DNA of 64,000 nt from NCBI GenBank assembly GCA_016215315.1, contig JACRKG010000054.1, positions 1 to 64,000 of the forward strand, in the 5' to 3' direction. Shown in pieces: positions 3,642 through 57,410 of this stretch. Each line of letters starts with the position of its first letter. Position 1 is the first letter of the stretch. A program made the position numbers and the translations under genes. The notes under the pieces are model-generated. The model was not told the origin of the DNA and searched no databases. It saw only the letters and a program-made list of their open reading frames with translations. Source of the stretch: Candidatus Woesearchaeota archaeon. Its GTDB lineage: Archaea > Nanobdellota > Nanobdellia > Woesearchaeales > ARS49.

Positions 3642-3744
3642 TTCTATAAAGAAAGAGCAAATGGTATATAAATATTTCTAATCTACAAAAATTTCTAAAG
3701 AAATTTTTAACTATTGGGCTATTTTATGATACTGAATCAGTTTG

Positions 3745-3800: not shown

Positions 3801-3810
3801 GCTTGATAAA

Positions 3811-10046: not shown

Positions 10047-10085
10047 GATCTAACATAAACTAATCAGTTACATATATAAAATTTT

Positions 10086-11009: not shown

Positions 11010-11038
11010 TTTTTTATCCTTATTAGTCCTTCTCCTTT

Positions 11039-11938
11039 TTAATTTTTGCTTTCAATTCGTATTTTTTTAGTTATTGTTTGAGCATAACCATAACTTAATT
11101 TAACTGTTAATGGTGAATTATAACTTCCTTCAACACTAGGAATTATTCTTTGCAACTCACAAAACAACTCATCACTCCCATCTTTTAAATTTAATTTGTT
11201 TTTATTACAAACTAACTTTTCATCACTCAATGAAACTTCTACATCAATCACATTCTGCTGTTCTGTGGGAATACTTTTTCCAGTACAAAAATAATTTACG
11301 TAATCAGAACTTATTATTTCTCCCTTATCTAAATTTTTAATGGTGATGATATATTGAGGTCTTACCCCGTTTTTTTCAATAATCATCCTAGGAACGATAT
11401 TTGTTACACCTATGGGTGCTGCTTGGCCTGCACTGAATGATTGAGGATTTACCGTGCAAACCTTTTTTTCTTTACTAGAAGGATTTGAATCGATGCAAGT
11501 AATAATGTTTGCTTTTGTTTCATAAGGATAACACAAACTAAACGATAAAACACTATTAATTCCTTCCTGACTCCCAACACTTTTAGCTTTTCCTTCAACA
11601 ATTATTTGTGTTTGATCTCCGTAAGGTCTTTCTAAACTCTTACCTTTAAGATTTATCGTGTCTGTTTTCTTATCTACTTTAATGTATTGTTCTTCTATTC
11701 CTAAAGAATAAACTCCATTAACAACATTACTTGCTCCAGTATTTTCTACAAAAATTCTTATTGGAACAGCAGATTCCTCATAAACATAAGCTGGTGGTGC
11801 ATTATTATCAAAATAAAAATTCAATCCTTTGCTTCCCGTAAATTCGCTACCGCTAAAAATATCTGAAGTGCAAGAGAGAACAAATAAAAACAAAATCGTC
11901 AAAAAAACCGATTTTTTCGAAGAAAAAATCCTACTCAT
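11039..11938 (-). CDS. secreted lipoprotein, paralog 3 of 3
   Basis: Signal peptide with lipobox VLSC. Conserved block CYPYETKANIITCIDSNPS. Its start overlaps the upstream stop in ATGA. Confidence 0.6.
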   Translation of the reverse strand: MSRIFSSKKSVFLTILFLFVLSCTSDIFSGSEFTGSKGLNFYFDNNAPPAYVYEESAVPIRIFVENTGASNVVNGVYSLGIEEQYIKVDKKTDTINLKGKSLERPYGDQTQIIVEGKAKSVGSQEGINSVLSFSLCYPYETKANIITCIDSNPSSKEKKVCTVNPQSFSAGQAAPIGVTNIVPRMIIEKNGVRPQYIITIKNLDKGEIISSDYVNYFCTGKSIPTEQQNVIDVEVSLSDEKLVCNKNKLNLKDGSDELFCELQRIIPSVEGSYNSPLTVKLSYGYAQTITKKIRIESKN

Positions 11939-13473: not shown

Positions 13474-13477
13474 TTCA

Positions 13478-38900: not shown

Positions 38901-41900
38901 GCCGAACAAGGAGATTGGGAAGGACTAACTAAATGGCATAATGAATTATCTGACGCAAATTACTTCCAAGAAATGAATAATAAACAATTAACAATATTAC
39001 AATTAGAACAAAAAATGCACAATACACAATCAGCAGGAAAACCAGGATGGGGAGAATGGTTATTCACATCAGGAGATAAGCTAAGAGAAAAATATTCAGA
39101 TTATTATAATCCAACACCAAGAGAAGAAACAATAAAAGGTTTAGGTAATGAAATAGAAAAACAAACAATACTAAGAGATGTAACTTATGAAATGAGAAAC
39201 ATGGATGATGAGCACAGAAAAGATCATTTAGATTATCTTGGAAAAAGAACTGAAGAAATATTAAAAGAACAAGGAGAAATAAAAACAAAAGCACAAGAAG
39301 CAAGAGGCGGATTTTTCTGGGGACTTATATCTAGCGCAGGTTCTGCTGTAGGCTTAACAACAGCTCCAAGCGTTCTAGAAGATCAAGCAAAAAATGCTGC
39401 TCTCGAAACAAGCCTAATGGAAGGAAGGCTAGAAGCAGTAGGTTCACTAATGAAAAATTATAATCCTCAAGGATATAATGAATTCAAACGAGAACTAGAA
39501 ATAAAAGCATTAAGCGCTCCAAAAAGTGCAGGATTCATGAAAGAATTCAGTCCTGAAAGAGCAAAAGTATACTCAGAATTAGGAGAAACTTACTTGAAAA
39601 CATTAACAAACTTAGAAACACAAGAAGCAGGAAACAAAGCAATAAATGAAGCTGTTTCAATAGCAGCAAAACAAGGAAAAACATTAACACAACAAGAACT
39701 AGATCAAGCATACTATGGTGGAGCAAGCAAAGCACTCAGTGATATTGGCCAAAAAATAAGAATGAACTCCGCAGAAATGTACAGTTCAACAAAAAGCTAC
39801 AACATTAAAGATGAAATAGAAAAGAATACTGCATCCACACTACAATTTTTAGGATCATATGCATCACAATACACAACAGAATTAAGAAAACTAAGCAATG
39901 AAGGGCTAACAACAAATGATGACTTACTAAAAATACAAAATAATATATTATCAACGATGAGTTCACTAGGAGGAATAAGCGAAATAAACAGAAAAGCATT
40001 CTTAGACTTAAACACGATGCAAGTATTAGGAACAAAAGTTCCAAGACTAGGACTAATGTCACCAGGAGGACTAGTAAGATACTGGAAAGAAGGAGTCTCT
40101 GGACTAGACAATATTGGCCAAACAGAAGTATACAATTTAGGAAACGTACAAGATGCACTATTAAGAGCAACAGCAGGAACAGCAGATAAATCAAACATAA
40201 ACATTCTCAAGAATGCAGGAATAAATTATGAAAAAGGAAAAATATTCCTAACACAAGATTCTCTAAATAAATTCAACAACAATGTAGTGCAATCCAAAGG
40301 AATAAACGATTTCAACTCATACGACATGAACCGCGTAAGCCAAATGTTTGGATTTGTAGAAATGATAAAAACAGCAGCATCATTCGCAGTAGGAGGAGTT
40401 GCAACTAAATTCGTTAACGAAGCAGTTACAGGAATAAAAACAGCCAACACAGCAAGATACTTCACAACAGCAGAAAAACTAAACAGGTACGTAAAATATG
40501 GAGAAGGATTAGAAGACTTAACACAATTACAAAGAATAGGACTAAAAGTTTCAAACGAAGCAATAAAAATAGGAGGGTTTGCAGGAGAAGCAACAGCATT
40601 CCCAATCGGAATGGCCGCAGGAAGCGACGCAGTAGGATATGTAGCAACAAGATTTGAAGATAAACTGGGGGGAACACCAGAAGGAAGAAGCTACACTCCA
40701 GCAATGGACGCATTCATGAAAAATCCGGGCGAAGCAATACTAAACTCTGCAGCAATGCTAGGAACATTCAAAGGTTTAGGAAAATTAGGAGTTGCAGCAC
40801 AAGAATATGCACAATCAAAAATAGTAAGAAATGCACTAGAAACAGAATTAGGATCACAAACAGCAAAACAATTACTTCCAGGAGTAATGAACAGATTAAG
40901 AACTGGAGAAGCAATACCGGAATTCTTGAAAGGAGCAGAAAACGTAGGAACAGCACTAACAATGACAAAAGCAATACCAATAGCATTTGAAATAGCAGGA
41001 ATGGTAGGACTAGAATCACTAGAAAACAATTACGCAGGAAACAGCGTTCCATTCTATGAAACACTACTAAGAGCAGGATTCACAACAACAATGATGCACG
41101 GAGCAGCACACATACCATCAAAAGATGCAAATCAAGGAATAAAAGCAAGCAATTTCGTAAGAGACGTAAGCTCAGCAAGAACAGTACGAGATCAAGCATA
41201 CGATTCATTACAAAAACTTGCAGGAGTAGAACCATCAGCAAGAAAACCATTTGAAGCAACTGCAGGAAGAGAATACATAGACCCATTAAAACAATACAAA
41301 CCAGAAGAATTAGACAACTTACAAGCAGACCAATTAAGACAATACCAAGAAGGAATGAACGAAGTAATAAAATATGAACAATTAGCAAACCAAGCAAGCA
41401 CTCCTGCAGAAAAAGAAGCAATGAGAACAGCCGCAGAAAATGCAAGAACACAAGCAACAGATATGATGGGAAGAGCAGAAGCAACAAGGAAATTAGCAGA
41501 AACAATGAGAGAAACACAACAAGAAGGAAAACTAAAAACACCACAACCAGTGCCTGAAGCAAAACAACCAACATCACAAGAAGCGCAAAAATTATTGAAA
41601 GACATTATCACGCCAGATATGAGAAAAGAACTACTACAAAGAATACAACAAGAACAATTAATCCAAGACGTAATAAACAATCCTGCAAGAGTAACAGAAC
41701 AAAGAATACTAGAAGAAGGATTAGCAAGAACCCCACAAGAAGCACAAAAATTATTGAAGGACTTAATTAAACAAGGTAAAAAAGCAAGACTAACAAACAA
41801 CGAATATGAATTAGCAAGAGCAGATAACAATTTAGGAAATGAAAGATACAAATTAGAAGTTGAGGCACAAAAATTACAAGAAAAATACAAAAACGGAGAA

Positions 41901-42563
41901 TTAACAACAAGCGATTATTCTAGATTATTAGACTTACAAAGAAATTATCATTTAGCAGAAGAACAATTCTACAAACAAGCATCAAGAGATAAAACAGGAA
42001 CAGAAAAAGCTCATTTGGATATTAAAGCAAATGAAGCAGCACAAAGAGCTTCAGACACAAAAATAGACATAGAAGCACTACAAAGAACAAGCCAAGCAAT
42101 AGGAATACCTCAAATAAAAGACGATAAAAAAGATGCACTATCATTAGAAGCAATAAAAGCAATAAAGAATTCACTGGACTTTTTAGACTTACAAATACTA
42201 AACAAAGGAAGAATTGTCAGCATGGATGTTTCCGCACTAAAAGAAATGAGCGACGCAACAAAAGAAAAAATAAGCTCTGGAGAACAAAAACTGTTAGCAG
42301 AAAATGGATTCAAATCACTAGCAGAAAAAGCAAGCGCATTAAGAAAAGAAGCAGAAGAAATGAGGACAAAAGCAACTAGTGAAAATGGTAAAATTATTGA
42401 TTTAGCACTATCAAGAAGTGCAATGGAATTAGACCAAAGAGCCAGTCAATTAGAACAAATGGCAAGAAATGAAAGAAGCACAGAAAGTCTAGAACAAGAA
42501 AGAACCCAATTAGAACAAGAAAGAGCAAGATTACAAAAAGAGATGGAAGCATGCGTAGGATAA
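26919..42563 (+). CDS. giant secreted protein (5214 aa): Cys-rich N-terminal region, Kazal domain, TSP3-like Ca-binding motifs, ~2800-aa helical/coiled-coil C-terminal region
   Basis: Single uninterrupted ORF starting at GTG 26919 (or GTG 26931) with a signal peptide. Myxo-type Cys repeats (CGDGSIDGPEQCD). Kazal signature CPETYESVCGKDGITYKNECLAKIAKADIERKGEC at about 32885-32992. D-x-D-x-DG clusters at about 33735-33910. Long E/K/Q-rich helical region with Gly/Ala-rich amphipathic stretches at about 39300-41100. Confidence 0.8.
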   Translation: MYDVVNKRVIALFVIVLFLNITLVSALPVWLEWMLKLPSITGKQVFQQQTCPSGYSPVKDNNQLIYAANCQTTDSGIMGNLYLGNNPQLYTPEGFVLAGLVDFACTPEITERTETICGPFVGNSEMGEPLSLVCQKSISCETTQQPPTTPPVETPPTTDQPIQPCSGVECPAGKILNTGTCSCECALTNAICKQNLNNNDAYADLTACSCKINETPPQTSENLCPSGGTVEALADTCEKYGSCPTPQIACGVKFTGYGSSTAFEWGPQCLDKTKITYYCGATNNEGKTAICQLENACGNNEICIQQPQENPTNVYCSAPESACPLEPGAEEPCQEKNKAISIQFPPGSEVLDKPYCDNLCQLSYCYQTSDKKITIAKSPGKEEQSRENGKAYDDSGKETGTDTETCYTCSFYSSGDFQPIACPISEVACNNNNVAQLGEECDGTDLKQKNCKDFTQSTILQPFDGGKLKCDTACDYNTNECYVCGDGSIDGPEQCDINEAGQEFGCDPGWFCGVQSGLRCQCIPPIIESTKESCQKAGVSTTLIKKDPPLAYTYTDGIKPSLEEAFNQALLETTGTLKSEGIELTNPSTDFENICFKCNIEGEAQTGDDVSRKVFADYCAPVEKVNLKTACIQEANGVTFQQKQNEDVKEETKYPNKARPEITKKEGRKLSSPKKFSNQEFSQSLNIPTSEVSSVDLNNVCWACGIPDTSYSLLGGKFSTSGQQGVTSQASLVPVRIDCPIIEKAETNCCIRKDDEGKIVERALVEGKCPEKLPIKDPTGEACKIIEKGKQVCCLVPPVPEKNIPENYVWKENSCGELKEFPEQYCNPIKRLACEICPSCDNAIGGLPQGTPSQSLLLADPKGIIGEGDEEQKQPKCGDGVRNGKEDFDPGMAVVNARKESENGARTQTICPVQEGSTGSLVTNQWDDHCKKIGLGTQFNINTCKCEGTTELSTSQSQQQIKTNCEVYKPSTEKTELPQLELLKKEYISFAPEKQIEQIPSIQSTILIQKDYVLSSDGRFKKEKTLEQIEETSKNIKPITGKFIITGFQTAEITTPKLIKTIDNVDGSKTLEFSDGSKKVLTETYSKNDLGQLVRDHFTKTVITKEGKTIQRKQLINGEIEETYPDKTVIRYKLTPDKKSQVTFQQFTNDKGKTVKLSYEYLPDSTRKRISDTDSSSAIQEPFINEKGEQEWRNKKETDAFGRTFSYDYKKTKINGEEKEVTLVKNEAGLIVEAFYDEQVQRINVDCEEKEKLNCKKPEESNYEKTDLGGGLLQFKKKIQEGEKQHEYTCKLTSTKIFSQPECLMTYEKTQLDDGTIKESIYEYQGDSTYKIIDKKDPRDVSVIKYVDGKPKTLMATSIDEEGNAVGYYVKEQQDGSQELDFFDGRTRKLSKTRETTSFTNEFGDETFLLGKNKEGKEQFKQVSSDGKTTIYYEEDSQDAEGKTKYFTSRTEIKTEKGTEVISREKTKDGLIKETRADSTGAVTILFFKEGESDPKKYQTIDECGIDSGIIETTKDQEKPETMTQPCETEEVQSQVDFTKLSDTEKDNYCKDRKSKDQQKNEESKKAKELKDICVYELKNNNYRINEIDKKDGSKEKYEYFNYESNELTKIEYTGGPRDGTYLILANAEDVKNEKGETVNDKYGSPKKLQVVLESKSLIDGQPKIYCTANLADGSKLQVEKGKGIISQYSYLNPETEKTLKNLGLIEETIIEETLIEKTLIEETPKKGPASFTTKTQVITQEKTTTTTREPLTNGNILVRAVDDDLRNSNFAHLLYEKYFNKECVGTEVIKEEQKSEETEQPKISLSAGRNQASQSSQKIAQTLLGGGKPTGPVNLGDVLGTQNPVSCVANTLKSLSEDKTETPEPKFLYQIIKPQKEEDLVLRQAFEVNGEEQITDYVYPEQKKKTSYTRVNVKEKTWTQFNEKDEAQEFLSKTEQGYQLTSYGDYGGLTKLCEKLDEKQYQNPLAEKVDMTPIQLCKEQPELCLAGSCPETYESVCGKDGITYKNECLAKIAKADIERKGECQCQDLKKLKPGTEVVCEDQKPRTTCTTDQDCNSEGTKTCGNGKEYYEKTCKEDKEGNKFCIPNPNLATICTNAECPPVQTSNNCPTGTLSKEIRYENGCFAGTQCISPGQPPIIPDSKQCPQVAIPTPITGYRIIPKFDNQGCLVNADMIGEEQITGMASEELAELQNIKLPTKETDKEKTAEASLEKPSEELNGVKDREIGDGCNQISICDNGEIYHPYLKKENSCIQNPLTICNSPIATYKTNLVKSCNDKDKDGRCDINNDNKEDAIIIRRSNDVIETVEINFGSKDNDFDNDGIPDWLDIDKYGTGKAFTKPTYSLDSPPEDRDNDKNKDVVELLLASQLFEAGQGYNFEQDKNNDLITDKEENSFSSIKNTLTSFAELIPGYLIIKAPFTLSTNLKFTPTSITGRIINGITGFFVAPPNNGGTGKLAQSQLIGGVWMANIEHAPQPYDYIMNVYDNFNKVKQPNFEAFKKYQKEYVDNIIGNLNVDLVCDKDGYKSFLETQKNSIVEQVMASVEAVKKSFEDAEKFLDSDLDIAYDKLAGINPVEDLKNKLENFQENYEKAKQEFEQTGEAYTGSKNNFKEIKNKISDKLQESNEGRKFIHAMEQSELNEVDTEKTFTSEQTALRLAQNNYNQISQSVAACNQARKEGQGSSSCEALVNKLNQATTSLNAAERQLSASQKRAQGAYQPQSQENLQAAFDKLPQKIKDQFGNTFANFMSASTQNLKATIDYINTQNFGNFWFGSTKFKPEFVSSADLLSKGTLEQVATTNRDRIVEKNIKAELINQRLDDTPENRASLRKIVENSEWYEEITNEVENAKQIQQKVQKGEKLTKEEQDFVQKTAKEENTRTKEEINKKKQEVFEKRKEEFSKAQEKLDKIQKFDFQKETNNLYQEITSDYPRKVSDLIEGLEDIRTRAQEIINNKESCPAENKDAMNQLLALLDSMIDSMERKKSDLYEFIDKHIEGKDKNAPTDPAEREKLFPAEALNAQNEKLKQYQDNANNPQATNFQKEQWNNLAQQEKQSFASIYFKLAADRMIIDAIFEQIQMLQVEPLTKLAQMLEQKMECCTQSYQPMKGTTLPKQEKIIEKPKDKELPKAPDTTGALALTLESIQCQTNLVTGMQTTSTTKRTQDDTENPPPELPTPIECPYCTCNNYIQKAAFKKGQATQTSFGPTLDEPQTPKEPPLDPGSVSNGASSRPTEPPTLQNIAAILKPGTTVAQPTTERPASIPPPTSITPKPQEIVKPIINPCVDKFKLKEASLEGVQKFEDQKLKKAAKEQNTCWKEFGDDYKGEGIQKWKENAVQAINEKLKSKGLSIDKLGSDAESTGGIKIYYGGSEVTPDEQGNIPGTFYNSEEIQKLREEQIQERMQSQTEKIRDCHVKTEAAAQVAKDVVGQDYNAQAVEKKDGTFQVQITSRDGTNGFLDENGNAIFQTPEGSAVKIGDKYVPLNKAQDGKMYTLDENGNLQAYNVDEKLGDEEKQKLSGCFNLNAIGLNYQADFNDLLAKGKIDEAIKAKINQGMMNARLNALLGDITAGINSLMDSLKAIAQVLKDQGLINEELFDMINKLSADNLDNLKTALEQLGDKIEDKTIFEEFKKTFDSLLASKTLQEANQLLEKQKGMKPCTEQKTPDCATKEEYQKIAEDLKKLVEEDKFFNKEEAMPENYKKFLQGLLVQSIFGSEGVPGLIDAMRTEIIEGIKNTSPLTELGKSLYTNLELEKAYQEILNKYGNYLSDEAKDGLTKSRDYYASEAEYAGIRLERQSEYTSLKEEKDLSLGERQFSNINEQRRTELLTKGEQITSRVEANFARQKAYSDLKTVLSEWVRGMERKGSFMDYSLKLGEIRKAIETYGGSSKEKLLSTLDQVNSKLASGSEAELTTGILDIMNSLTETNNLPSNRITDEEIQSLGVINKLTASGKDVHLADQKGNILSNDLEGSHQSIQSREKVQEQSQLYKILVAGKYQQAAEQGDWEGLTKWHNELSDANYFQEMNNKQLTILQLEQKMHNTQSAGKPGWGEWLFTSGDKLREKYSDYYNPTPREETIKGLGNEIEKQTILRDVTYEMRNMDDEHRKDHLDYLGKRTEEILKEQGEIKTKAQEARGGFFWGLISSAGSAVGLTTAPSVLEDQAKNAALETSLMEGRLEAVGSLMKNYNPQGYNEFKRELEIKALSAPKSAGFMKEFSPERAKVYSELGETYLKTLTNLETQEAGNKAINEAVSIAAKQGKTLTQQELDQAYYGGASKALSDIGQKIRMNSAEMYSSTKSYNIKDEIEKNTASTLQFLGSYASQYTTELRKLSNEGLTTNDDLLKIQNNILSTMSSLGGISEINRKAFLDLNTMQVLGTKVPRLGLMSPGGLVRYWKEGVSGLDNIGQTEVYNLGNVQDALLRATAGTADKSNINILKNAGINYEKGKIFLTQDSLNKFNNNVVQSKGINDFNSYDMNRVSQMFGFVEMIKTAASFAVGGVATKFVNEAVTGIKTANTARYFTTAEKLNRYVKYGEGLEDLTQLQRIGLKVSNEAIKIGGFAGEATAFPIGMAAGSDAVGYVATRFEDKLGGTPEGRSYTPAMDAFMKNPGEAILNSAAMLGTFKGLGKLGVAAQEYAQSKIVRNALETELGSQTAKQLLPGVMNRLRTGEAIPEFLKGAENVGTALTMTKAIPIAFEIAGMVGLESLENNYAGNSVPFYETLLRAGFTTTMMHGAAHIPSKDANQGIKASNFVRDVSSARTVRDQAYDSLQKLAGVEPSARKPFEATAGREYIDPLKQYKPEELDNLQADQLRQYQEGMNEVIKYEQLANQASTPAEKEAMRTAAENARTQATDMMGRAEATRKLAETMRETQQEGKLKTPQPVPEAKQPTSQEAQKLLKDIITPDMRKELLQRIQQEQLIQDVINNPARVTEQRILEEGLARTPQEAQKLLKDLIKQGKKARLTNNEYELARADNNLGNERYKLEVEAQKLQEKYKNGELTTSDYSRLLDLQRNYHLAEEQFYKQASRDKTGTEKAHLDIKANEAAQRASDTKIDIEALQRTSQAIGIPQIKDDKKDALSLEAIKAIKNSLDFLDLQILNKGRIVSMDVSALKEMSDATKEKISSGEQKLLAENGFKSLAEKASALRKEAEEMRTKATSENGKIIDLALSRSAMELDQRASQLEQMARNERSTESLEQERTQLEQERARLQKEMEACVG

Positions 42564-45500
42564 ACGAACTAAAAAAAGTAGTAATACTATTTTTTGTACT
42601 TTTAATTAGTTTACAAATCATTGCAGCACAAGCATGCTATCCACAACAAGAACTACAAAAAGTCAACGAAAGAATAGAAGAAATAAAAACAGCACTAGAA
42701 GCATCACGAAATGCAGAAAATGCAAGAACAGCAGAACACGAAGCATACAGAAAAACAGAAAAATCATTTGAAGACGCACTAAATTTAGTACAAGACAAAT
42801 ATGATGCAGGAGAAATAACACCAGAACAGTATTCTGCACTGAAAAAAGTCTACGAAAACGAAGTAGCAAAACTAAGAAAAGCAAGACAATTAAGTATTTT
42901 ACAACTAGAAAATGTAGGCTCAGGAGCTAAAATAAGTCAAGAAGTACAAAAATTAGAAACAAACAGAAGAAAACAATTAAGCCAAGTAGAAAGAAAACTT
43001 TCAGATCTTGAATACCAATTAAGAAGCGGAGGAAAAAGCGAATCTGAAGTAAGCGGAACATTAGCAACTGAAAGACAAAAATTACTACAAGAATTATCAG
43101 ACCAGCTAGGAACATCAAGAGAACAACTAAACAAAGAATACAATCTTAACGAAATCCAAAAACTAGAAAGAGAAATAAACCAATTAGAAATAGCAAATAA
43201 CGAAATAAAATCAGATACCCGATTCAAACAATTCTTTGAAAGCATAGAAAGCGTAAAAGAAACTTATAGAGTCAATCAAAATTCAGAAGCAAGAATGCAA
43301 GCAAGAGAAGACTTAGCAAAAAAATTAAGACAAGACCCAGAATTATCAAACAAAATTGATGGAGCAGAAGTAAAATATCGAGACATAAGACAAAAAGCAA
43401 AAGAACTAGTTGCTGATATGAACGACAAAGCGGCAATAAAACAAAAAATAAAAGAACTAGCTAAAAAAACAGCAGAAACTCCTTCCGACGTACAATCATG
43501 GAAAGACTTATCACTACTAAAAAAACACTTACAAAATTTAGAATTAGGAAACTACAACAAACTATCGAGCTTAAGAACAGAATTAGGAGCAGCACAAGAA
43601 AGACTAACAAAACTACCTCAAGATTCTGCAGAATACAAAGCAGTAGAAACAGAATACAACAGGATTCTAGACGAAATAAGCGATATATCAAATGAATCCT
43701 ACTTAGAAACAGGAGACAAAACATTAAACGATTTGTTAGAATTAGTGATGAGACAATGGGAATACGCCAAAACATCAGAACAAAACCAATACACATTCAA
43801 CATTAGAGGAAAACAATTAAGTGAAGCATTATTAGAATTCGCCAGAAATTTGAAGCCTGGTAAGGCTTCAGCAATAGAATTCGCACTAGGTGGAGGAAAA
43901 ACAAGCACAGTAGCTCCAGTAATCGCAGAAATATCAAGACTACTAACAGGAAGAAAAGCATTAATAGAATTACCAGATGGAAAAAGCACAGATGCATACA
44001 ATGAAATAGGAAGGGCGCTAACAAGACAAGGAAGAAGAGTTGTAGTAATAAGAAACACAGAAAAACCACTAGAAATTTTAGCGCAAATAAAAGATGCAGA
44101 CGTAGTTCTCGTAGAATTCAGCACTAGAGGATTCATAGAAGCAATGGCCAGGTCAACAAAAATAAGCCCGACACTACGAGAAGCTTACAGAGAACTACAA
44201 TTAGAACTAGTAAAAGACAGAACACATATACAAGACGAAGCACACCAAGGAACAGACATAGGAAACAGATACACATTAAGCGGTGGAGAAGGAGAAGAAA
44301 TAGGCAAACCATTACAAAACGATGCAAAACTAATAGGAGACACACTAGTAGAATTGGGATTCGTTAAAAAAGGATTCGTGGACAGAAGTGTATTATCGAC
44401 AACAGCAGTCTTTAAAGGAATATTCATGCAAGCAAGAGGAGCACTATTTGAAGAAACAGCACTAAAAAAAATATCAGAAAAACTAGCAGAAAAACTAAAA
44501 CAAGAAGGTTTCAGCCAAGAAAACTTAGGAGAAAAAATAAATGACTACTTCAAAAACAAAGAAAAAAGCAAATACTCAAATGAATTCTCAACAGAACAAC
44601 AAACAAGAATGAAAGATTTACTAGAACAAATCAACAATTTCGCAGAAGCAATGAACAAAAAACCAAACAGTGAGTATCAACCAGATAAATTAGGAAGAAA
44701 AATAGGCCTAGCAAAAAACGGAAACCCTGCATTCAATCAACAAGTAAGCAATCCAAAACTAGCACTAGCAGTTGAGTATGTTGGAAGTACATACTTTGAC
44801 AAACCAACAAATTTCGGATCAGTAAAAACAAGCGGAGGAACAATATCCTCATCCTGGCTAGCAAACCAATATTTATTATTAAAAAATAGCGGAACATACT
44901 TAGGAATGTCAGGAACAATGGGAAAACAATTACAATCCCTCGTTAGCGCACTAAAAATAGAAACGAAATCAAACTCACAAATGAACGACTTAATCTTTGG
45001 AAGACAAAATGCACAAGGAGAATACGAAGGAGGACTATTAAGAGAAGCAACAGGAACAAAAACACTAAATGAAGCACTAGATATTTCAATAAAAGAAATT
45101 CAAAAAGGAAAAGAAGGAATGTTCGGCAAGAGCAAAGGACAAGATGCAAATGGAAATTTAGTAATGGTAGTACCTCACGAAGGAACAACAGCTGGAGAAA
45201 TAATAAGCAAACTAATAAAATCAGGAATCAAAAAAACATTCATAGAAAAAAACGGAGAAAACTTCATTCTAAAAGATAGTAATGGAAACAAATTAAGAGA
45301 TATAAATTCAAAAGAAGCAGCCACATTAATGAATAATGGAAAAGATATAATTCTAGTAATGGGAGAAGCAGCAACAACAGGAACAGACGTAAAACTAAAC
45401 AAAAACATACCATTTGTTAACTTCGCAAGCTCAACAAACATAGCAGACACAATAATGCAAGGAGTAAAAAGAGCGGGAAGACTAGCAGGAACAAACGCAG

Positions 45501-48500
45501 CAGAACACCCTGACACTTACATGTTCATATCAGGAAAAGAAGTAAAAACAGGAAAATTAACAATTAAAGAAGTAAAAGAAGTATGGGATAAAAACCAAAA
45601 TCATGAATCAAAAAACAGCCTATATGATTATGTAAGCGCAATAGTTGAATTTCACTACGAAAAATTATTTGTAGACATACTATACCAAGAAGGACTAAAT
45701 CCGGAACTAGCAAGAATAGCACAAGAACTAAACGAAGCATTCACGAGCAAAGGAAGAACAGAACAAAACTTAAACACAGAACACGGAGTAAGCTCAGTAG
45801 AACAAACATTAACAGGAAAAGTAAAAGGCAACACAGAATTCTTCAAAAAAATACTAAATGGAGAAGAAATAATACTAGAAGGCGAATACACTGAAACGGG
45901 AGAACCAAAAAAAATAACTTCACAAGACGTACGCAAATTCAGAGATAGTTTAGACTCAGAATTCAAAAAAAGACTAGAAGACTTATCCGAAGAACCAACA
46001 AAGAAATTTGAATTTGGTGAAGGAAAAGAATCAGAAAAACAACCACTACTAGAAGAAACACTAGACGGACTAATAGGCTTATTAAGTCAAACAATACCAA
46101 AAGAAGCTCTGCCAGAATTTGCTCCAGGAAAACTAAGCGACACATTTATAGTGAAAGAATTAACTGAAAACAGACACAATTCAGAACAATTATTATCCCA
46201 AATGGAAGGAGAATTAGGATCATTAACAAGACAAAATGATGAAGTAACCTCAAGAATAAACGAATATAAAAATGGAGTAAATGGTGTTGTTCAAGAATTA
46301 CAAAACAATGACTTAATAACAATAAGAGGAGGGATACAAGCAGGAACTTACACAGTAAACAAAGACGAAGACGAAAATGTTTGGTTACTAAACGCAAAAG
46401 GAGAAATAATCTCGGCACAAACAGCACTAATGATTGACTCAGCACTAAAAACAAGCGATGAAATAAAAATAACGAGATCACAACAAGAAATATTAAGTCA
46501 AGAGTTGCAAGAAGCAAACGAAAACCTAGAAACAGTAATCCAAGCACAAAATGAATACAACAAATTAATCGCTGAAAAAGAAAGATTAGAACAAGAAATA
46601 TTCAACATAAACAACATAGAAGCCACAAATCAAGCAGCAGAAGCATTATACAAAATATTCAAAGAAAAAGGACTAGAAAATCTAATATTAAACCAAGCAG
46701 ACCTACTAAACTACTTATCATCAATACCTCAAGAAGAAAGAGATGCAATAATAAACACAGGAAAAGACTTAACATTAAATAAAAACCAAATAGATAAAAT
46801 AACAGAGAAATTTTCGAAGAAAATTTCTCAAGGAGAATTACTGAAAAGACAAAACAACGAACAAATAACAACAGACACAACAAAATACAGAGACCAAATC
46901 AAAAAATACACAACACAAATAAAAACAATCAATCAAGAACTACTAAACACATTGCGTTTATCACTTGCAGGAATATCACAAACACAACTTCCAACATTAG
47001 CAGGAACAGAAACAACATCCGCATATGAATTAATCGATCTTGCAATAAAAGAATTAGAAAAAACAAACCTAGAAGAATTAGTGAGCAAATTAGAAACAAC
47101 TGAAGGCTTCGAACTCACACAAGAACAAATAATATTACTAACAGAATTACAAAACCAAATACAAACAAACACTAAAAACTTAGAATTAACCCTCTCAATA
47201 CTAAACGAATTATTAACACAAGACATAACTAGCGAACAAAGAGAACAATTATCAAAAACATACAATAAAGCAGCACAATCACTAAAACAATTCCGTGAAT
47301 TAGAAAGCCAAACAAGTGCAACAAGAACACAAATTAATTTAGACTTAGGAATAGAAGCACTAACGCAAGAAGAACTAGAATCAAAAATAAAAGAAAAACA
47401 ATCAGAAATAGAAACAGCACAAAACTCAATAAAAGAATTCTCACAACTAGCACAAGAAGCAAAAACAAAAGGAGATGAAGGAGCAGTAAAAGCATACGAA
47501 GATGCAATAAAAGACAGACAACAAGAAATAACAAAACTAGAAAAAGAAATAGCACAACTAAAAACAAAACTAGAAATTTCTGCGGAAATTTCAACAACAA
47601 AAGAAATTCCTCCAGCAACAGAACTCCCTGCAATAATTGAACCAATATCATCAAGAGAACAAATCCCACTACCAGAACATGAAGAACTCAAACCCGAAAC
47701 AGGCTCAGCTGAAAGAGCAAGAAAAGCAAGAGAACAATTAACACAAAAAATAGACCAAATAATCAAAGGCATGCCAGTTCCAGTATATGCATTCAACCAA
47801 CCATTAGAAAGTGCATGGGGTGGAGACCTAATAAGGATATCATCTCCAAAATCGGGTGTTGTGAGAGTTCTACACTTAGACGCCACAGGTCATGGATCTC
47901 AAGGAGCTAAACACAAAACAGGATTAGCATTAGCAATACAAAGGCTAGAGACTGGAGCAACAGGCGAACTAAAACAAGACTTAGAGATGTACTTGAGAGC
48001 ATTACAAGAAGAAATCAACACAATAAAAGAAGAATTTAAAGAACAAGGTTTGAGTGCAGAAGAACTAAAAGATTATGATCCTTTAGGAACATTTGCAGTA
48101 TATGATTATAACACTGAAACGGGCGAAGTAATTTATTCAACGGGAGGAGAAGAGAGAAACTTCTTCCAATATACTGAAGGAAAAGTAGGAGCAGCACTCA
48201 AATCTAGGGGAGAAAAATTAGGTGAAGCGGGAATTAAAACAGATACTACAAACATGAAGCCAGGAGATGTATTTGTAATAGTTAGTGATGGAGTCACAGA
48301 CATGTTCAAAGATGGAGCAAAGAGATTACAAAAAGCTCTAGGAAAAGATAAATTTGACCAATTAGGAATAAAAGATTTGAAACAAATAATTGAAGAAAAC
48401 GCAGGCAAATCAGAAGGAGAAATCAAACAAGCAATAATGAGTGAGTATAATAGAATAAAAGGATTCTTGGCACCTGTAATAACTGAATTAAAAGAACAAG

Positions 48501-51500
48501 AAAAAACAAAATCCTTATCCCAATTAGAAGCAGATCAAAAAGAGGCAGAAACATTAAGAGAAACAATAAATGTTATTGAAGGTTTGTTTGATGACGTAAG
48601 CATAGTAGTAATGAAAGCTAAAACGGCAGAAGTATCTGCGCTAAATATAGAAGATTCATTCTTTACTGATGCGGTGGATGAATCTATTGCTAAGGGGGAA
48701 ATACCTGACGCATTGCCTGGTGTGCGCGATGAAGATGATAAAGATAATTTAAGAAGTGTTATTGCGTCTGGCGAAGTTTCAGTTAAAAAATTATATAAAG
48801 AGTTACATTCCAGAATAAGCACCGACCCCAAATTAAGTAATGAAGAGAAACAAAAACGTTTAGCTGCGCTTAATGTTGTTTTCAGAACAACCGTAACCTG
48901 GCTAGTTGCTCAGGATGAAGCAGATCTAGAACTTCCTTATGTTGCTCATGATGCTAAACACTCTAGAACTACTTCAACAGATATGTCTAAGATTGTTAGA
49001 GCCTCTCCAGAACTTAGAGTTGAATTAGAAAAACAATATGGCCCATATTATGCAGAACTAGTTACTTTGTTAGGATTCTTGCATGATGTTGGTTACGCAA
49101 CACTCGAAGAAGGAGAACATAAATCTATCCATGCACCTAGAGGAGGTGAAATGGTTGAAAATTTCTTGAGAAGTCAAATAGCTGCTTCATTCGGTTTAAG
49201 CGAAAAAGCTGTTAGTGATTTTGTTGATGCAATAACTTATCATGGTTCTGATAAGAAAGGAAAAGATTACAAAGCGGCAAGTTTGACAGAAAATCCTTTA
49301 CTATTACTGATGCGTTTATCAGATAACCTTGACATAACAGAAAATAGATTAAGAGCTTGGCAAAGAGATCAATTCTTTATGAGAGCAGTATACAAGCTCT
49401 GGGATGATGAAGAAATAAAAGGTTATGAAGCAAAAATAGCCGGATTAAGAAAAGAATTATCCCGAACAGAAGTTAAAAAAGATATTGATGAACATAATGA
49501 ACAAATCGATGCATTAATTGAAAAGATCAATGAACGAGTTAAAAAGATCAATGAAGAGTCAGTCAATGTTATTACTGGTGTTCGCAACTTATTACAAAAA
49601 TTACATGATGAAAGATCTACTGAATGGTATCAACAAGCAGATGAAAATACTAAAATAATTTTATCAAAAAGCGCGCTTATGAAAGGACTAGGAGAAATTC
49701 TAAAAGATAGAAAACTCGAGAAAAACCAACTTGGAACAATTTTGACCCTTTTGAAGAAGTATGCTTTAAATGATGCAAAATTAAGTGACAGTCTCAGTAT
49801 GTTCGGAAACATTATCGAGGCAATTCCTAAAATGAATTATGAATCATTCCCACACTTCATAGGAGCACTTGTAATAAAAGGCGTTAATTACCAAGTTAAA
49901 AATGGCGAAATGATTGTTAGTGTTGATATTGATCCAGAAGCTGAACGTCTTGGAGAACAATTATTAGGTAAAGAAAACGTTCTGGTTGGCGAATATCAAG
50001 TTGCGAGAACAGTTCTTGCAGTATCCTCATTATTCTTTGAAGAAGGAATCGATGAAATTAAAGGACCAACTGAAAGAGGAATTAAAATAGAAATTAAAAA
50101 AATTAAAGAATCAAAAGAAAAAATCAAAGAACTCAAAGAAATAGAAGAAATACAAGAAGGTATTGGAGCTACAAAAATAATTATGCCCGAAACAGAAAAA
50201 CCAATTCTAGAAGAAGAAATCGGAATCCCCGCAGAAATAACTCTTGAAGAAAGAATCACTGAACGTATAGAAACTGATTGTGAAGGTGGAGGAAGCGTAC
50301 ATTGCTCATTCAATTACGAGAAAACGGGTGTATCAATTGATTTATTGAATCAACACGTAATGAATGAGAAAAATAAACAAGAAATAATCAAAGCTGCAAC
50401 TACGGTTGTAGAATGGGCAGCAGGAGTTTATAATTTCAAAAAAGAAAAACCCGAAGAAGCGTGGATTAAAGAAGTAACATTCGAAGGAACTGTTGTAAAA
50501 ATAGTAATAAACGTAGAACAAAAAAATGCAGAGTCAATAAAAGAAACACTTCAAGCCAGGTTAGCTTCAGAAAAATTATGGGACGCATTAGTCAGAACGC
50601 CTAATCTTGTAGTATACACAAATATTGCAACTAGAGAAGAAATAATAAAAAACATAGAATTCCAACTAGAAAAAGCAGTACTTGAAGAGAAAGTCGAAGA
50701 AAAAATTTCAAGAATCACAATTCCAAAAGAAGAAGTACACAATCTTGAAAGTATACTAGAAAAAATCGGAGTAACACTTCCAGAATTAGTGGACAGAAAA
50801 AAACCAGTAGGCTACCAAATCAAAGGAGCAACAAAATTAGGACAAGGAAGATTTGGAATTGCTTGGTTAGTAAACTTAGATGGGAAACAACAAGTAATAA
50901 AAATATTAGATATAGAAGACGAAGGAGCATTATCAAGTTTGAGCAGTGAAACACTAGAAGGAGTCTTAGCTAATTATGACTTTGTTCAAGAAGAGTACTT
51001 GATCACGCGACAAGTCAAAGGAGACTCACGCTTTATTCAAACAAATGGAATAGTTCGCGGAGAACAAGAATTAATAGATTTAGGTAATAAATTTATTTCA
51101 GAAAGTGAAGAATTATCAAAACTTTTTGAAGACAAAAATGCGCTACGAGAAAAACTCAAAAACCGAGAAATATCGGCAAAAGATGTAAGCAAACAACAAA
51201 AACAAGCAGAATTTTTCAAGAAAAAAGGAGAATACTTAATAAATTTAGCAAAACAAGGCAGCGGTTTCATAGCAACAATTTCAGATTATTACGAAGGCGA
51301 AGACTTTGATGCAATGAGAAAATCACAAAAAACAATATCTAGAAAACAATTCTCTGAATTAAAAAGATTCCTCACACAAGCATTGAATGATTTACACAAT
51401 GGAAAAACGTTAGACCGCTTGTTAATAACTCACGGAGATACAAAACCCGCAAATGTCATGTTATTAAAAAATGGAAAATTCCTAATCTTAGACTTTGGAG

Positions 51501-52105
51501 TAGCAAAATTACACAAACCAGAAAAACAACAAAATCCAATAGAAAAAGATGACTTAAGAAAAGGAGTTTTCTTAGATAATGTAAGATATTATGAAACAAC
51601 GAACAGAGCAAGAACAATGCAAGACTTCTCAGAAGTTTCAGATCAAGAATTTGAGCAATGGTATTTAGGAGAACTAACAGAATTATTAAAAGGATTTAAA
51701 GAAGTAAATGTAGAACATGACTTCCTCGAAACAGAAGTAGGAAAATTCAAACAAGATTACAAAAAATTAATTGAAACAATAAAACAAAACACAATAGAAA
51801 CTTTCAAAAATAAAGCAATCAAAGAAGGCAGACTAACTCTAGAACAACATGAAGAATTACTGAGAAAAGCACAACAATCACTAGAACAACATGAAGAATT
51901 ACTGAGAAAAGCACAACAATCACTAGAACAAATCCCACTACCAGAACATGAAGAACTCAGACCAGAAAAAGAACTACCTGCTGAGGTCCTTACACCTGCA
52001 GAAGTACTAATGAATGAATTAACAAAAGCAGAAAGCAAACCATCAATAGGATATCCCGATATTGAAGATATAGTGATACAAGAAGGAGTAGACGTATGCA
52101 GTTAA
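42551..52105 (+). CDS. giant secreted multi-enzyme protein (3184 aa): SF2 helicase-like ATPase core + PP2C/SpoIIE phosphatase + HD phosphohydrolase + Hanks-type Ser/Thr kinase
   Basis: Overlaps the upstream stop by 13 nt. Signal peptide. SF2 motifs: I ALGGGKTS, II DEAH (IQDEAHQG), III SGT, VI QGVKRAGRLAG, at about 43850-45500. PP2C: DATGHG and SDGVTD at about 47750-48480. HD: HDVGY ... H ... H ... D at about 48900-49350. Kinase: LGQGRFG, VIKIL, HGDTKPANV, DFGVAK at about 50800-51620. Confidence 0.8.
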   Translation: MRRINELKKVVILFFVLLISLQIIAAQACYPQQELQKVNERIEEIKTALEASRNAENARTAEHEAYRKTEKSFEDALNLVQDKYDAGEITPEQYSALKKVYENEVAKLRKARQLSILQLENVGSGAKISQEVQKLETNRRKQLSQVERKLSDLEYQLRSGGKSESEVSGTLATERQKLLQELSDQLGTSREQLNKEYNLNEIQKLEREINQLEIANNEIKSDTRFKQFFESIESVKETYRVNQNSEARMQAREDLAKKLRQDPELSNKIDGAEVKYRDIRQKAKELVADMNDKAAIKQKIKELAKKTAETPSDVQSWKDLSLLKKHLQNLELGNYNKLSSLRTELGAAQERLTKLPQDSAEYKAVETEYNRILDEISDISNESYLETGDKTLNDLLELVMRQWEYAKTSEQNQYTFNIRGKQLSEALLEFARNLKPGKASAIEFALGGGKTSTVAPVIAEISRLLTGRKALIELPDGKSTDAYNEIGRALTRQGRRVVVIRNTEKPLEILAQIKDADVVLVEFSTRGFIEAMARSTKISPTLREAYRELQLELVKDRTHIQDEAHQGTDIGNRYTLSGGEGEEIGKPLQNDAKLIGDTLVELGFVKKGFVDRSVLSTTAVFKGIFMQARGALFEETALKKISEKLAEKLKQEGFSQENLGEKINDYFKNKEKSKYSNEFSTEQQTRMKDLLEQINNFAEAMNKKPNSEYQPDKLGRKIGLAKNGNPAFNQQVSNPKLALAVEYVGSTYFDKPTNFGSVKTSGGTISSSWLANQYLLLKNSGTYLGMSGTMGKQLQSLVSALKIETKSNSQMNDLIFGRQNAQGEYEGGLLREATGTKTLNEALDISIKEIQKGKEGMFGKSKGQDANGNLVMVVPHEGTTAGEIISKLIKSGIKKTFIEKNGENFILKDSNGNKLRDINSKEAATLMNNGKDIILVMGEAATTGTDVKLNKNIPFVNFASSTNIADTIMQGVKRAGRLAGTNAAEHPDTYMFISGKEVKTGKLTIKEVKEVWDKNQNHESKNSLYDYVSAIVEFHYEKLFVDILYQEGLNPELARIAQELNEAFTSKGRTEQNLNTEHGVSSVEQTLTGKVKGNTEFFKKILNGEEIILEGEYTETGEPKKITSQDVRKFRDSLDSEFKKRLEDLSEEPTKKFEFGEGKESEKQPLLEETLDGLIGLLSQTIPKEALPEFAPGKLSDTFIVKELTENRHNSEQLLSQMEGELGSLTRQNDEVTSRINEYKNGVNGVVQELQNNDLITIRGGIQAGTYTVNKDEDENVWLLNAKGEIISAQTALMIDSALKTSDEIKITRSQQEILSQELQEANENLETVIQAQNEYNKLIAEKERLEQEIFNINNIEATNQAAEALYKIFKEKGLENLILNQADLLNYLSSIPQEERDAIINTGKDLTLNKNQIDKITEKFSKKISQGELLKRQNNEQITTDTTKYRDQIKKYTTQIKTINQELLNTLRLSLAGISQTQLPTLAGTETTSAYELIDLAIKELEKTNLEELVSKLETTEGFELTQEQIILLTELQNQIQTNTKNLELTLSILNELLTQDITSEQREQLSKTYNKAAQSLKQFRELESQTSATRTQINLDLGIEALTQEELESKIKEKQSEIETAQNSIKEFSQLAQEAKTKGDEGAVKAYEDAIKDRQQEITKLEKEIAQLKTKLEISAEISTTKEIPPATELPAIIEPISSREQIPLPEHEELKPETGSAERARKAREQLTQKIDQIIKGMPVPVYAFNQPLESAWGGDLIRISSPKSGVVRVLHLDATGHGSQGAKHKTGLALAIQRLETGATGELKQDLEMYLRALQEEINTIKEEFKEQGLSAEELKDYDPLGTFAVYDYNTETGEVIYSTGGEERNFFQYTEGKVGAALKSRGEKLGEAGIKTDTTNMKPGDVFVIVSDGVTDMFKDGAKRLQKALGKDKFDQLGIKDLKQIIEENAGKSEGEIKQAIMSEYNRIKGFLAPVITELKEQEKTKSLSQLEADQKEAETLRETINVIEGLFDDVSIVVMKAKTAEVSALNIEDSFFTDAVDESIAKGEIPDALPGVRDEDDKDNLRSVIASGEVSVKKLYKELHSRISTDPKLSNEEKQKRLAALNVVFRTTVTWLVAQDEADLELPYVAHDAKHSRTTSTDMSKIVRASPELRVELEKQYGPYYAELVTLLGFLHDVGYATLEEGEHKSIHAPRGGEMVENFLRSQIAASFGLSEKAVSDFVDAITYHGSDKKGKDYKAASLTENPLLLLMRLSDNLDITENRLRAWQRDQFFMRAVYKLWDDEEIKGYEAKIAGLRKELSRTEVKKDIDEHNEQIDALIEKINERVKKINEESVNVITGVRNLLQKLHDERSTEWYQQADENTKIILSKSALMKGLGEILKDRKLEKNQLGTILTLLKKYALNDAKLSDSLSMFGNIIEAIPKMNYESFPHFIGALVIKGVNYQVKNGEMIVSVDIDPEAERLGEQLLGKENVLVGEYQVARTVLAVSSLFFEEGIDEIKGPTERGIKIEIKKIKESKEKIKELKEIEEIQEGIGATKIIMPETEKPILEEEIGIPAEITLEERITERIETDCEGGGSVHCSFNYEKTGVSIDLLNQHVMNEKNKQEIIKAATTVVEWAAGVYNFKKEKPEEAWIKEVTFEGTVVKIVINVEQKNAESIKETLQARLASEKLWDALVRTPNLVVYTNIATREEIIKNIEFQLEKAVLEEKVEEKISRITIPKEEVHNLESILEKIGVTLPELVDRKKPVGYQIKGATKLGQGRFGIAWLVNLDGKQQVIKILDIEDEGALSSLSSETLEGVLANYDFVQEEYLITRQVKGDSRFIQTNGIVRGEQELIDLGNKFISESEELSKLFEDKNALREKLKNREISAKDVSKQQKQAEFFKKKGEYLINLAKQGSGFIATISDYYEGEDFDAMRKSQKTISRKQFSELKRFLTQALNDLHNGKTLDRLLITHGDTKPANVMLLKNGKFLILDFGVAKLHKPEKQQNPIEKDDLRKGVFLDNVRYYETTNRARTMQDFSEVSDQEFEQWYLGELTELLKGFKEVNVEHDFLETEVGKFKQDYKKLIETIKQNTIETFKNKAIKEGRLTLEQHEELLRKAQQSLEQHEELLRKAQQSLEQIPLPEHEELRPEKELPAEVLTPAEVLMNELTKAESKPSIGYPDIEDIVIQEGVDVCS

Positions 52106-57289: not shown

Positions 57290-57410
57290 AAAACTATTAT
57301 TTTTACTATGTGGAAACAATTCTTCTTTTCCGACGAAAAAAACAGGAAGATTTATAAAGAAAAACATTACAAAACACTTGAAAAATAGAATAAAAAACGA
57401 GGGGTTATTA

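Follow-up and report, generated by a model that had tools for sequence, protein, structure and literature searches.

The window analysed here is a 64,000-nucleotide (nt) stretch of a Candidatus Woesearchaeota archaeon (positions 1 to 64,000 of contig JACRKG010000054.1, forward strand, assembly GCA_016215315.1), and its subject is a very long gene, here called o3184, that lies among other giant genes on the forward strand. The surroundings are archaeal and chromosomal, with genes for an eRF1-family (three-domain) protein, TrmB, AsnC, the alpha and beta subunits of PheRS and two tRNAs. The open reading frame (ORF) of o3184 (42551-52105, +) is an uninterrupted frame of 3184 codons with an ATG start and a product of 3184 amino acids (aa). 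It is not attributable to chance, since at this composition (~33% G+C) ~7.5% of random codons would be stops and the calculated chance of such an open frame is ~e^-247; o3184 is a genuine gene of a DPANN archaeon. An identical protein is deposited at NCBI on a 142-kb contig as 'SpoIIE family protein phosphatase [Candidatus Woesearchaeota archaeon]', a label that conceals ~90% of the protein's content.

The chain starts with a signal peptide and a helical spacer, continues with a SecA-like ATPase, a second spacer, a SpoIIE-type PP2C phosphatase and a probable HD hydrolase, and closes with a small Cys-pair domain, a non-RD protein-kinase-like core and a short tail ending in Cys. A sequence-only reading of the same DNA had proposed four enzymes on one chain in the order ATPase, PP2C, HD and kinase, and every motif it listed was recovered in its place and in that order: ALGGGKTS (aa 445-452), DEAH (562-565), MSGT (786-789) and QGVKRAGR (970-977), followed by DATGHG (1777-1782), SDGVTD (1912-1917) and HDVGY (2178-2182), and finally GQGRFG (2764-2769), VIKIL (2782-2786), HGDTKPANV (2961-2969) and DFGVAK (2981-2986) of the kinase. 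The combination of PP2C, HD and kinase was seen in no other retrieved sequence and is unreported so far. The features of o3184 are given below, where P0005 is its closest relative (from GCA_053533315.1) and P0009 a relative of the HD segment.

42551-42634 (+): Sec-type signal peptide, aa 1-28, MRRINELKK / VVILFFVLLISLQIIAA / AQA followed by C (hydropathy, charge pattern)
42635-43762 (+): helical or coiled-coil-like spacer, aa 29-404, first residue Cys29 (composition; co-linear with P0005)
43763-45730 (+): SecA-like two-RecA (SF2-type) ATPase, aa 405-1060 (motifs, fold model)
43883-43906 (+): Walker A motif of the ATPase
44234-44245 (+): DEAH motif of the ATPase
44906-44917 (+): MSGT, motif III of the ATPase
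45362-45388 (+): motif V-like GEAATTGTD of the ATPase
45458-45481 (+): motif VI QGVKRAGR of the ATPase
45731-47740 (+): second long helical spacer, aa 1061-1730 (composition; co-linear with P0005)
47650-47702 (+): 53-nt direct repeat, left copy, encoding ..REQIPLPEHEELKPE.. (repeat comparison)
47783-48625 (+): PP2C phosphatase, SpoIIE/RsbU type, aa ~1745-2025 (Pfam PF07228)
48923-49345 (+): probable HD metal-dependent phosphohydrolase, aa ~2125-2265, H..HD..H..H..D (borderline in Pfam HD; relative P0009)
50276-50626 (+): small conserved domain with the internal Cys pair C2577/C2585, aa 2576-2692 (BLASTP against P0005)
50798-51550 (+): eukaryotic-type protein-kinase-like core, aa ~2750-3000, GQGRFG, K2784, HGDTKPAN, DFG (Pfam Pkinase)
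51919-51971 (+): 53-nt direct repeat, right copy, encoding ..LEQIPLPEHEELRPE.. (repeat comparison)

The ATPase module comprises two tandem RecA-like lobes that carry motifs I, II, III, V and VI in co-linear order, as in superfamily 2 (SF2). An insertion of ~220 aa (aa 566-785) separates motifs II and III at the site where SecA has its preprotein cross-linking domain. By eye, this insertion ends in a SecA-like stretch, NQQxS..ALAxExVG ... GMSGT; the SecA_PP_bind model gave no match, and part of the region was modelled with low confidence. Further details are in the style of SecA, namely an SGGE stretch directly after motif II, GMSGT as motif III and GxxGTD as motif V. In comparisons with the model of the ATPase module, SecA and SecA2 were ranked first by both fold methods and with the longest aligned length, the Foldseek alignments to SecA spanning ~700 columns; XPD, DinG and RIG-I-type helicases ranked closely behind. 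The helicase-like ATPase of the sequence-only reading, for which SecA and SNF2 had been suggested as alignment targets, therefore stands as an SF2 motor that is SecA-like and not SNF2-like, with the insertion, GMSGT and GxxGTD as its SecA-style features.

Sequence models draw the limits of this kinship. Neither SecA_DEAD (PF07517) nor P-loop_SecA matched aa 400-1100 at E<=10, and in the same scan the C-terminus of P0007, a protein that contains a relative of this ATPase, matched SecA_DEAD at 1.3e-25. When the ATPase family was compared by hhalign with that genuine SecA_DEAD domain, the similarity was weak (E 4.8e-4, probability 32%). SecA_SW had no match in the Pfam scans, and neither helical scaffold nor wing nor two-helix finger was detected in the model, which ends at aa 1060 and contains only ~55 residues of helices past nucleotide-binding domain 2 (NBD2). 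The module was not recognised by Pfam, NCBIfam or PDB sequence searches, PDB sequence and profile searches gave chance matches only, and a word-indexed search with the ATPase alignment found no homologue. A single-sequence AlphaFold model (predicted local distance difference test, pLDDT, 38) was useless and was discarded. By its predicted fold, the ATPase is an SF2-type two-RecA motor with SecA as its nearest known kin; it is not filed as a member of the SecA family, since the SecA sequence models do not match it and neither scaffold nor wing was detected. Nor is it a free cytosolic motor of the SecYEG type, being embedded at aa 405-1060 of an archaeal protein of 3184 aa behind a signal peptide.

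Among 1.84 billion representative proteins, searched exhaustively with HMMER, just seven relatives of the ATPase came up, nearly all of them giant proteins or their fragments. Those with a source name belong to Woesearchaeota, Woesebacteria/Patescibacteria and Omnitrophota, the last represented by P0008; two carry no such name. In an alignment of eight ATPase modules, G-K-T and D-E are invariant and motifs III, V (GxxGT[DN]) and VI (Q..R..R) are conserved. P0007 (7844 aa) carries, besides the family ATPase at aa 1552-2111, a C-terminal set of SecA_DEAD, PPXD and P-loop_SecA recognisable by Pfam, and by eye also kinase-like and GGDEF-like stretches.

For the PP2C module, Pfam SpoIIE (PF07228) scored 37.8 bits (cut-off 25, E 2.4e-9), and the motifs GGD (1757-1759), DATGHG (1777-1782), SDG (1912-1914) and DD (2013-2014) are all identical in P0005. 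We take the GGD, DxxGHG, xDG and DD motifs to be the metal ligands of PP2C from knowledge of the family and not from a structure-based alignment; on this assignment, the metal-binding Asp residues anticipated for the phosphatase are all present. The PP2C of P0005 is 70% identical and covers profile positions 3-191 of 192 (E 3.9e-9), and the remainder of the two proteins is only ~28% identical, which indicates strong purifying selection on the phosphatase. PDB sequence and profile searches with the PP2C gave chance matches only, and a search of GTDB genomes for related loci with the PP2C alignment found none, the patterns chosen for it having been poor.

The HD module has the HDVGY motif of the sequence-only reading, which had named HD-GYP as an alignment target; it is a generic HD and not an HD-GYP, as no GYP motif was found by eye in the segment, and the score lies just below the Pfam threshold. 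Pfam HD (PF01966) gave 21.4 bits (cut-off 22, E 3.3e-4) with the 200-aa segment alone and 14.7 bits with the whole protein. P0009, the one relative found for the segment, itself matches Cas3_HD (0.0045) and HD (0.12) weakly; at 35% overall identity, five signature positions (HS, HD, HGSD, SDNLD) are conserved between o3184 and P0009, and no His of P0009 stands opposite the middle one (IHAPRGG) in the alignment. Chance matches only were returned by PDB sequence and profile searches with the segment. An HD domain in o3184 is thus probable. The small domain that follows matches aa 2105-2214 of P0005 (BLASTP, E 3.7e-13), and its C2577/C2585 are the sole internal Cys pair.

The kinase-like core exceeds the Pfam Pkinase (PF00069) cut-off with 35.7 bits against 31.7 (E 7.9e-9), a match that covers profile positions 73-153 of 263 only. 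It has the glycine-rich loop GQGRFG, the beta3 lysine K2784, H2961-G-D2963, K2965, N2968 and D2981-FG, so neither the catalytic Lys nor the catalytic Asp is missing and the non-RD kinase that had been predicted is borne out at the level of these residues. Both lobes align co-linearly to BMPR1B and NEK1, an insertion of ~100 residues separating N-lobe and hinge. Directly past DFG the profile no longer matches, the canonical C-lobe is not recognised, and no APE motif was seen by eye in the 150 residues past DFG. Weak matches to the small kinases Bud32 and APH agree with a kinase whose C-lobe is reduced or unusual. A search of JGI metagenomes with the kinase returned ordinary kinases of 650-800 aa only. 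PADLOC matches to PD-T4-6 models are limited to the kinase core (aa 2912-2992), and a defence system was rejected.

Upstream of these enzymes, the N-terminus is organised like a Sec signal peptide or an N-in signal anchor, as judged from its sequence. The hydrophobic segment at aa 10-28 (Kyte-Doolittle value 2.58) is the sole one in o3184; R2, R3, K8 and K9 precede it and AQA followed by Cys29 comes after, with a net charge of +3 before and about 0 after the segment. P0005 has been called with a truncated start. Reading it further upstream gives MRSINTKTGTRIFIILLIIIIMSTSAIAQV followed by Cys, a build as in o3184, and this corrected start overlaps the stop of its upstream gene. The signal-anchor-like N-terminus noticed at first is thus present and kept in the orthologue. 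A Tat signal, considered because of the MRR start, was rejected: the residues after RR misfit the motif, the segment is very hydrophobic, and the orthologue P0005 lacks the twin arginine, which makes Tat export unlikely. A lipobox at Cys29 was likewise dismissed, as o3184 has AAQA before the Cys and the true lipoproteins of the window have IVAC, FISC and VLSC. All four giant ORFs of the window have signal-peptide-like N-termini, and the archaeal members of the ATPase family show no second segment at transmembrane hydrophobicity. From the signal peptide and its context, it is a reasonable inference that the enzymes would be extracytoplasmic or delivered elsewhere.

The two spacers make up much of the rest; helical spacer accounts for ~40% of the chain. 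In the first (aa 29-404), Glu, Lys and Gln contribute 26-34% of residues and Gly and Pro are nearly nil, a structural class taken from composition alone, and the second (aa 1061-1730) had no significant match in a Pfam scan. On the coding strand of the giant genes (window positions 26000-56000), A exceeds T very strongly, with an AT skew of 0.4-0.48, owing to the richness of their helical spacers in Lys, Glu, Gln and Asn. A word-indexed homologue search with the whole of o3184 returned o3184 alone; in searches of this kind the candidate list was probably swamped by coiled-coil words.

Comparison with P0005 divides the protein into a stable and a variable part. From aa 26 to 2035, i.e. from the signal peptide through PP2C, the two are co-linear, and they are so again at aa 2576-2692. 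P0005 has neither the HD block (~aa 2036-2575) nor the C-terminal kinase and ends in a different, unannotated sequence. Because this closest relative lacks both, HD and kinase look like exchangeable cargo on a conserved chassis that extends from the signal peptide and first spacer over the SecA-like motor and second spacer to PP2C. The PP2C-HD-kinase block is enclosed by the two copies of the 53-nt repeat, which are 91% identical, lie 4269 nt apart and encode the peptide EQIPLPEHEEL(K/R)PE, and a 42-nt tandem duplication (51832-51915) directly precedes the right copy. The repeat could have been left by recombination during cassette exchange, or it may represent a repeated linker or processing site.

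In another family member, P0002 (5752 aa), a signal peptide and an N-terminal part containing Cys open a single chain in which the ATPase occupies aa 4029-4730, so that the motor of this genome is a portion of one large exported protein. By BLAST, P0002 showed no similarity to the protein encoded upstream of o3184 (o5214, see below). The P0002 locus also encodes FG-GAP and beta-helix proteins, a free-standing kinase and a second giant gene with a kinase domain; kinase domains thus recur among giant genes of related loci. At that locus (L004), the C-terminal cargo of P0002 (24098-27256) has a weak match to the type III effector HopA1 (E 0.0024, below cut-off), the second giant gene (31581-37259, 5099 aa) carries its protein-kinase domain at E 6.4e-7, and between the two lie the free-standing kinase of 378 aa and a SIR2 gene.

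o3184 lies between two partner genes in a conserved operon with translational coupling, o5214-o3184-o1267, downstream of which a further giant ORF is found.

26919-42563 (+): upstream partner gene o5214, 5214 aa, signal peptide, Cys-rich N-terminal part (homologous to the gene upstream of P0005)
52096-55899 (+): downstream partner gene o1267, 1267 aa, signal peptide, kinase-like G-loop/Lys motifs (ORF, homology)
57291-64000 (+): further giant ORF of at least 2236 aa that runs off the window, signal peptide, FHA domain at 58224-58436 (Pfam)

Neighbouring genes overlap by 13 nt (o5214/o3184) and 10 nt (o3184/o1267), the start codon of o3184 lying inside the last codons of o5214. The gene order is repeated in GCA_053533315.1, where a 5970-aa gene, P0005 and a 2149-aa gene follow each other and P0005 is flanked by homologues of the window genes on either side of o3184. 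Cys-richness and Kazal-like modules are typical of extracellular proteins. o5214 has a Kazal-like module and 124 Cys, 123 of them within its first 3662 residues, followed by a Gly/Ala-rich amphipathic region at ~aa 4480-4720 and a helical tail with C5212 as its sole Cys; by these features it looks like an extracellular adhesin. o1267 has a conserved C-terminal part of 800 aa and shares 41% identity with the gene that follows P0005 (E 1.8e-174). Two kinase-like G-loop/Lys motifs were noted in it (~aa 165 and ~aa 340), with a match to the kinase-like Pfam family FTA2 at E 2.7e-5, below cut-off. A PDB profile search with its C-terminal domain gave chance matches only, and a GGDEF/palm-like stretch ('IDLKNLNDRSGGHAKADLV'), seen by eye only, was dropped as unsupported by Pfam or the PDB profile search. 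In the giant ORF at 57291-64000, the FHA domain is recognised by Pfam at E 6.9e-15, and together with the kinase and PP2C of o3184 it completes the phospho-threonine toolkit of the locus.

A further trait of these proteins is the distribution of Cys. o3184 has just 4 Cys in 3184 aa, compared with 0.49% in the ordinary proteins of the window (P ~5e-4). Each archaeal member or partner examined carries Cys at the mature N-terminus and/or within the last 1-4 residues, the chains (in o5214, the tail) being otherwise nearly free of Cys: C29 and C3183 in o3184, C27 and C1266 in o1267, C5212 in o5214, C10 and the last residue in P0005, and the last residue in P0002, with terminal Cys likewise in the neighbours of P0005 in GCA_053533315.1. 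The corresponding codons of the window are as follows.

42554-42556: Cys codon of C5212 (o5214)
42635-42637: Cys codon of C29 (o3184)
52097-52099: Cys codon of C3183 (o3184)
52174-52176: further terminal Cys codon
55891-55893: further terminal Cys codon

Cys3183 is the penultimate residue of o3184, and its TGC overlaps the ATG of o1267. At three of four junctions, the TGC of the terminal Cys shares nucleotides with the NTG start codon that follows; at the fourth, between the 5970-aa gene and P0005 in GCA_053533315.1, the ATG is one register off and there is no such overlap. Read from these junctions, the C-terminal Cys could be a by-product of the overlapping NTG start. This account is in doubt because the last genes (o1267, the 2149-aa gene and P0002) end in Cys with no gene following. 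One possibility would be a head-to-tail disulfide linkage of the operon products.

Elsewhere in the window, a 1362-aa signal-peptide protein with 80 Cys (5.9%) and a weak DUF7107 match (22025-26113, +) adjoins the giant-gene operon upstream and may be part of the same surface apparatus. A 583-aa protein (3742-5493, +) with MVP_shoulder (E 2.9e-28), Vault repeats and Band_7 is vault-like, which is unusual in a DPANN archaeon. Three tandem paralogous ORFs of ~300 aa (9117-11938, -) with the lipoprotein-type signals IVAC, FISC and VLSC have 7 Cys each and no Pfam match, and they are followed by two unannotated membrane-anchored ORFs (11935-14671).

Woesearchaeota, Patescibacteria and Omnitrophota, the groups in which the ATPase family occurs, are ultra-small organisms thought to attach to other cells. 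The interpretation we favour, tentatively and with something short of even confidence, is that the operon proteins form a host-contact apparatus of an episymbiotic cell, equipped with a translocation motor and a phospho-threonine switch. The Cys-rich partner o5214 would bind the host surface, and the nearly Cys-free enzyme chain of o3184 would act where ATP exists, either inside the host or within a bridge of cytoplasm that joins the two cells. Three modules depend on ATP or a phosphorylated substrate, although the chain has the make-up of an exported protein and is paired with an adhesin-like one. The SecA-like motor might spend ATP on threading polypeptide through a channel, whether that of o3184 itself, of a partner or of the host. 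Kinase, PP2C and FHA could constitute a reversible phospho-threonine switch that governs assembly or acts on host proteins, with HD and kinase serving as swappable cargo.

Several points weigh against this host-contact apparatus. We identified no translocon or pore-forming element able to carry a chain of 3000 aa into another cell. The localisation, the cleavage of the signal peptide, the enzyme activities and the host are all ones that we infer from sequence. In the bacterial giant proteins with SecA-like domains and in the SPEARE proteins, the ATPase part is predicted to be cytoplasmic in the producer, behind transmembrane segments (bioRxiv 10.1101/2023.11.21.568195; PMC6642349). The C-lobe of the kinase is unrecognisable, so that protein-kinase activity is not assured, and the depletion in Cys is only about four-fold in a proteome that is already Cys-poor. 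A more far-reaching version appears distinctly unlikely to us: the exported machine would enter or bridge into the host, the motor, acquired across domains, would thread polypeptides between cells, the kinase/PP2C/FHA circuit on the same chains would switch the connection or rewire host signalling, and disulfides between terminal Cys would join the operon products into a chain of ~9700 residues. If true, no cell-to-cell effector or translocation system with a built-in motor would have been described from archaea before.

A different and rather unlikely explanation keeps the enzymes at home. The SecA-like module would stand in for SecA, which archaea lack, and export its own N-terminal part or o5214 through SecYE-beta, and the enzymes would stay at the cytoplasmic face of the producer, held by the N-terminal hydrophobic segment, and regulate from inside. 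Self-export was put forward by the describers of SecA-like domains in giant bacterial proteins (bioRxiv 10.1101/2023.11.21.568195), and the predicted cytoplasmic position of the conserved ATPase-like part of SPEARE (PMC6642349) fits it. The cytoplasm of the producer is also biochemically the most sensible place for ATP-dependent enzymes, and in P0002 the ATPase is preceded by Gly/Ala-rich amphipathic stretches with a possible capacity for membrane insertion (by eye; below the hydropathy threshold). However, the charge pattern (net +3 before and ~0 after the segment) and the AxA site predict an N-in/C-out topology or cleavage, which would leave the enzymes outside. Moreover, the archaeal members lack a second segment of transmembrane hydrophobicity, and the ATPase follows just ~400 residues past the signal peptide, leaving little of its own chain to export.

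The motor might instead act on nucleic acids, an SF2 helicase or translocase and an HD nuclease taking up or degrading host DNA or RNA in the manner of Cas3 (HD plus SF2 helicase) or of the restriction-enzyme-like part of SPEARE, under regulation by kinase and phosphatase. This seems improbable. It draws on the scores of XPD, DinG and RIG-I-type helicases near that of SecA, on Cas3_HD as the best weak match of P0009 and on the SPEARE precedent (PMC6642349); on the other hand, both fold methods place SecA and SecA2 at the top, and SGGE, GMSGT, GxxGTD and the position of the insertion are SecA-specific. In addition, there is no Cys available for an XPD-type FeS domain, the HD module lies ~1100 residues from the motor with PP2C in between and is absent from the closest relative, and PADLOC matches the kinase core only. 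Most improbable is a purely structural surface fibre with helical spacers as extracellular tether and decayed or non-catalytic binding modules, which would agree with the ~40% of helical spacer, the unavailability of ATP outside cells and the unrecognisable kinase C-lobe, but not with the presence of the catalytic residues of ATPase, PP2C, HD and kinase core or with a PP2C 70% identical between two genomes against ~28% elsewhere.

A host-contact apparatus as favoured here would be of wider interest. There are very few molecular candidates for host attachment, opening and uptake in DPANN archaea, and the conserved giant-protein operon is a concrete, testable one. The sharing of one rare ATPase family by Woesearchaeota, Patescibacteria and Omnitrophota points to horizontal exchange between ultra-small symbionts and a shared mechanism.

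Several known systems share parts of this design. Bacterial modules of Hanks kinase, PP2C and FHA include PpkA-PppA-Fha1 of type VI secretion and PknB-PstP-FhaA/B of mycobacteria. As there, three parts occur in one locus tied to a secretion or surface apparatus; unlike there, the parts reside in giant exported proteins, kinase and phosphatase form one chain, the PP2C is of the SpoIIE/RsbU type, and the locus has no type VI or other known secretion genes. MARTX and polymorphic toxins are modular multi-effector toxins. A conserved N-terminal delivery part, variable C-terminal enzymatic cargo among close relatives and a Cys-poor chain are features in common with them, whereas RTX repeats, an autoprocessing protease and known toxin domains are missing from o3184, for which delivery is a conjecture only.

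To our knowledge, archaea are not supposed to possess a protein-translocase-type motor such as SecA. SecA is mainly a bacterial protein (PMC6123708). With SecA and SecA2 the ATPase of o3184 shares the best structural match, the co-linear motifs I, II, III, V and VI and the large insertion between motifs II and III, but it differs in having no similarity at the level of hidden Markov models (HMMs), no detected scaffold, wing or two-helix finger and a position behind a signal peptide instead of free in the cytosol.

Within DPANN, the SPEARE giants of Nanohaloarchaeota are 3300-8500 aa long, are expressed and have been proposed for host contact (Hamm et al. 2019, PMC6642349). They combine an adhesion part with a conserved ATPase-like 'type III restriction enzyme' (SF2) part, and adjacent genes of 4057 and 3315 aa occur, one with an N-terminal membrane segment (PMC6642349). 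Both systems are giant DPANN proteins that pair an adhesion-like part with an SF2-type ATPase part. By Pfam, no laminin-G, serine protease or restriction-enzyme domain was found in o3184, o5214 or o1267; the SPEARE proteins, in turn, have no described PP2C or kinase, and no ATPase relative with a source name is nanohaloarchaeal.

The closest likeness is to the giant proteins of Omnitrophota and Actinobacteria, in most of which SecA DEAD and preprotein-binding domains of divergent sequence occur with neither scaffold nor wing (West-Roberts et al., bioRxiv 10.1101/2023.11.21.568195). Those SecA-like domains often accompany Ser/Thr phosphatase and GGDEF domains, and a role in the export of the proteins themselves has been proposed (bioRxiv 10.1101/2023.11.21.568195). 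Like the 'Archaeovorin' and 'Dockerin-type' proteins of Omnitrophota and the actinobacterial giants, o3184 combines a SecA-like motor with a very long, poorly annotated protein of an ultra-small, presumably cell-dependent organism; Ser/Thr phosphatase domains, adhesin-like neighbour genes, the origin of P0008 from Omnitrophota and the SecA_DEAD domain of P0007 are further points in common, and no scaffold or wing was detected in the model up to aa 1060. On the other hand, the genome is archaeal, the protein has 3184 aa compared with >30,000, there is one hydrophobic segment in place of many transmembrane helices, the motor is missed by SecA_DEAD, and the system is split over an operon of proteins that each have their own signal peptide. 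o3184 is thus closest to the giant proteins with divergent SecA-like motors and is set apart from them as an archaeal protein with kinase, PP2C and HD cargo and an FHA partner, so that the hitherto bacterial theme of a giant protein with a divergent SecA-like domain crosses the domain boundary.

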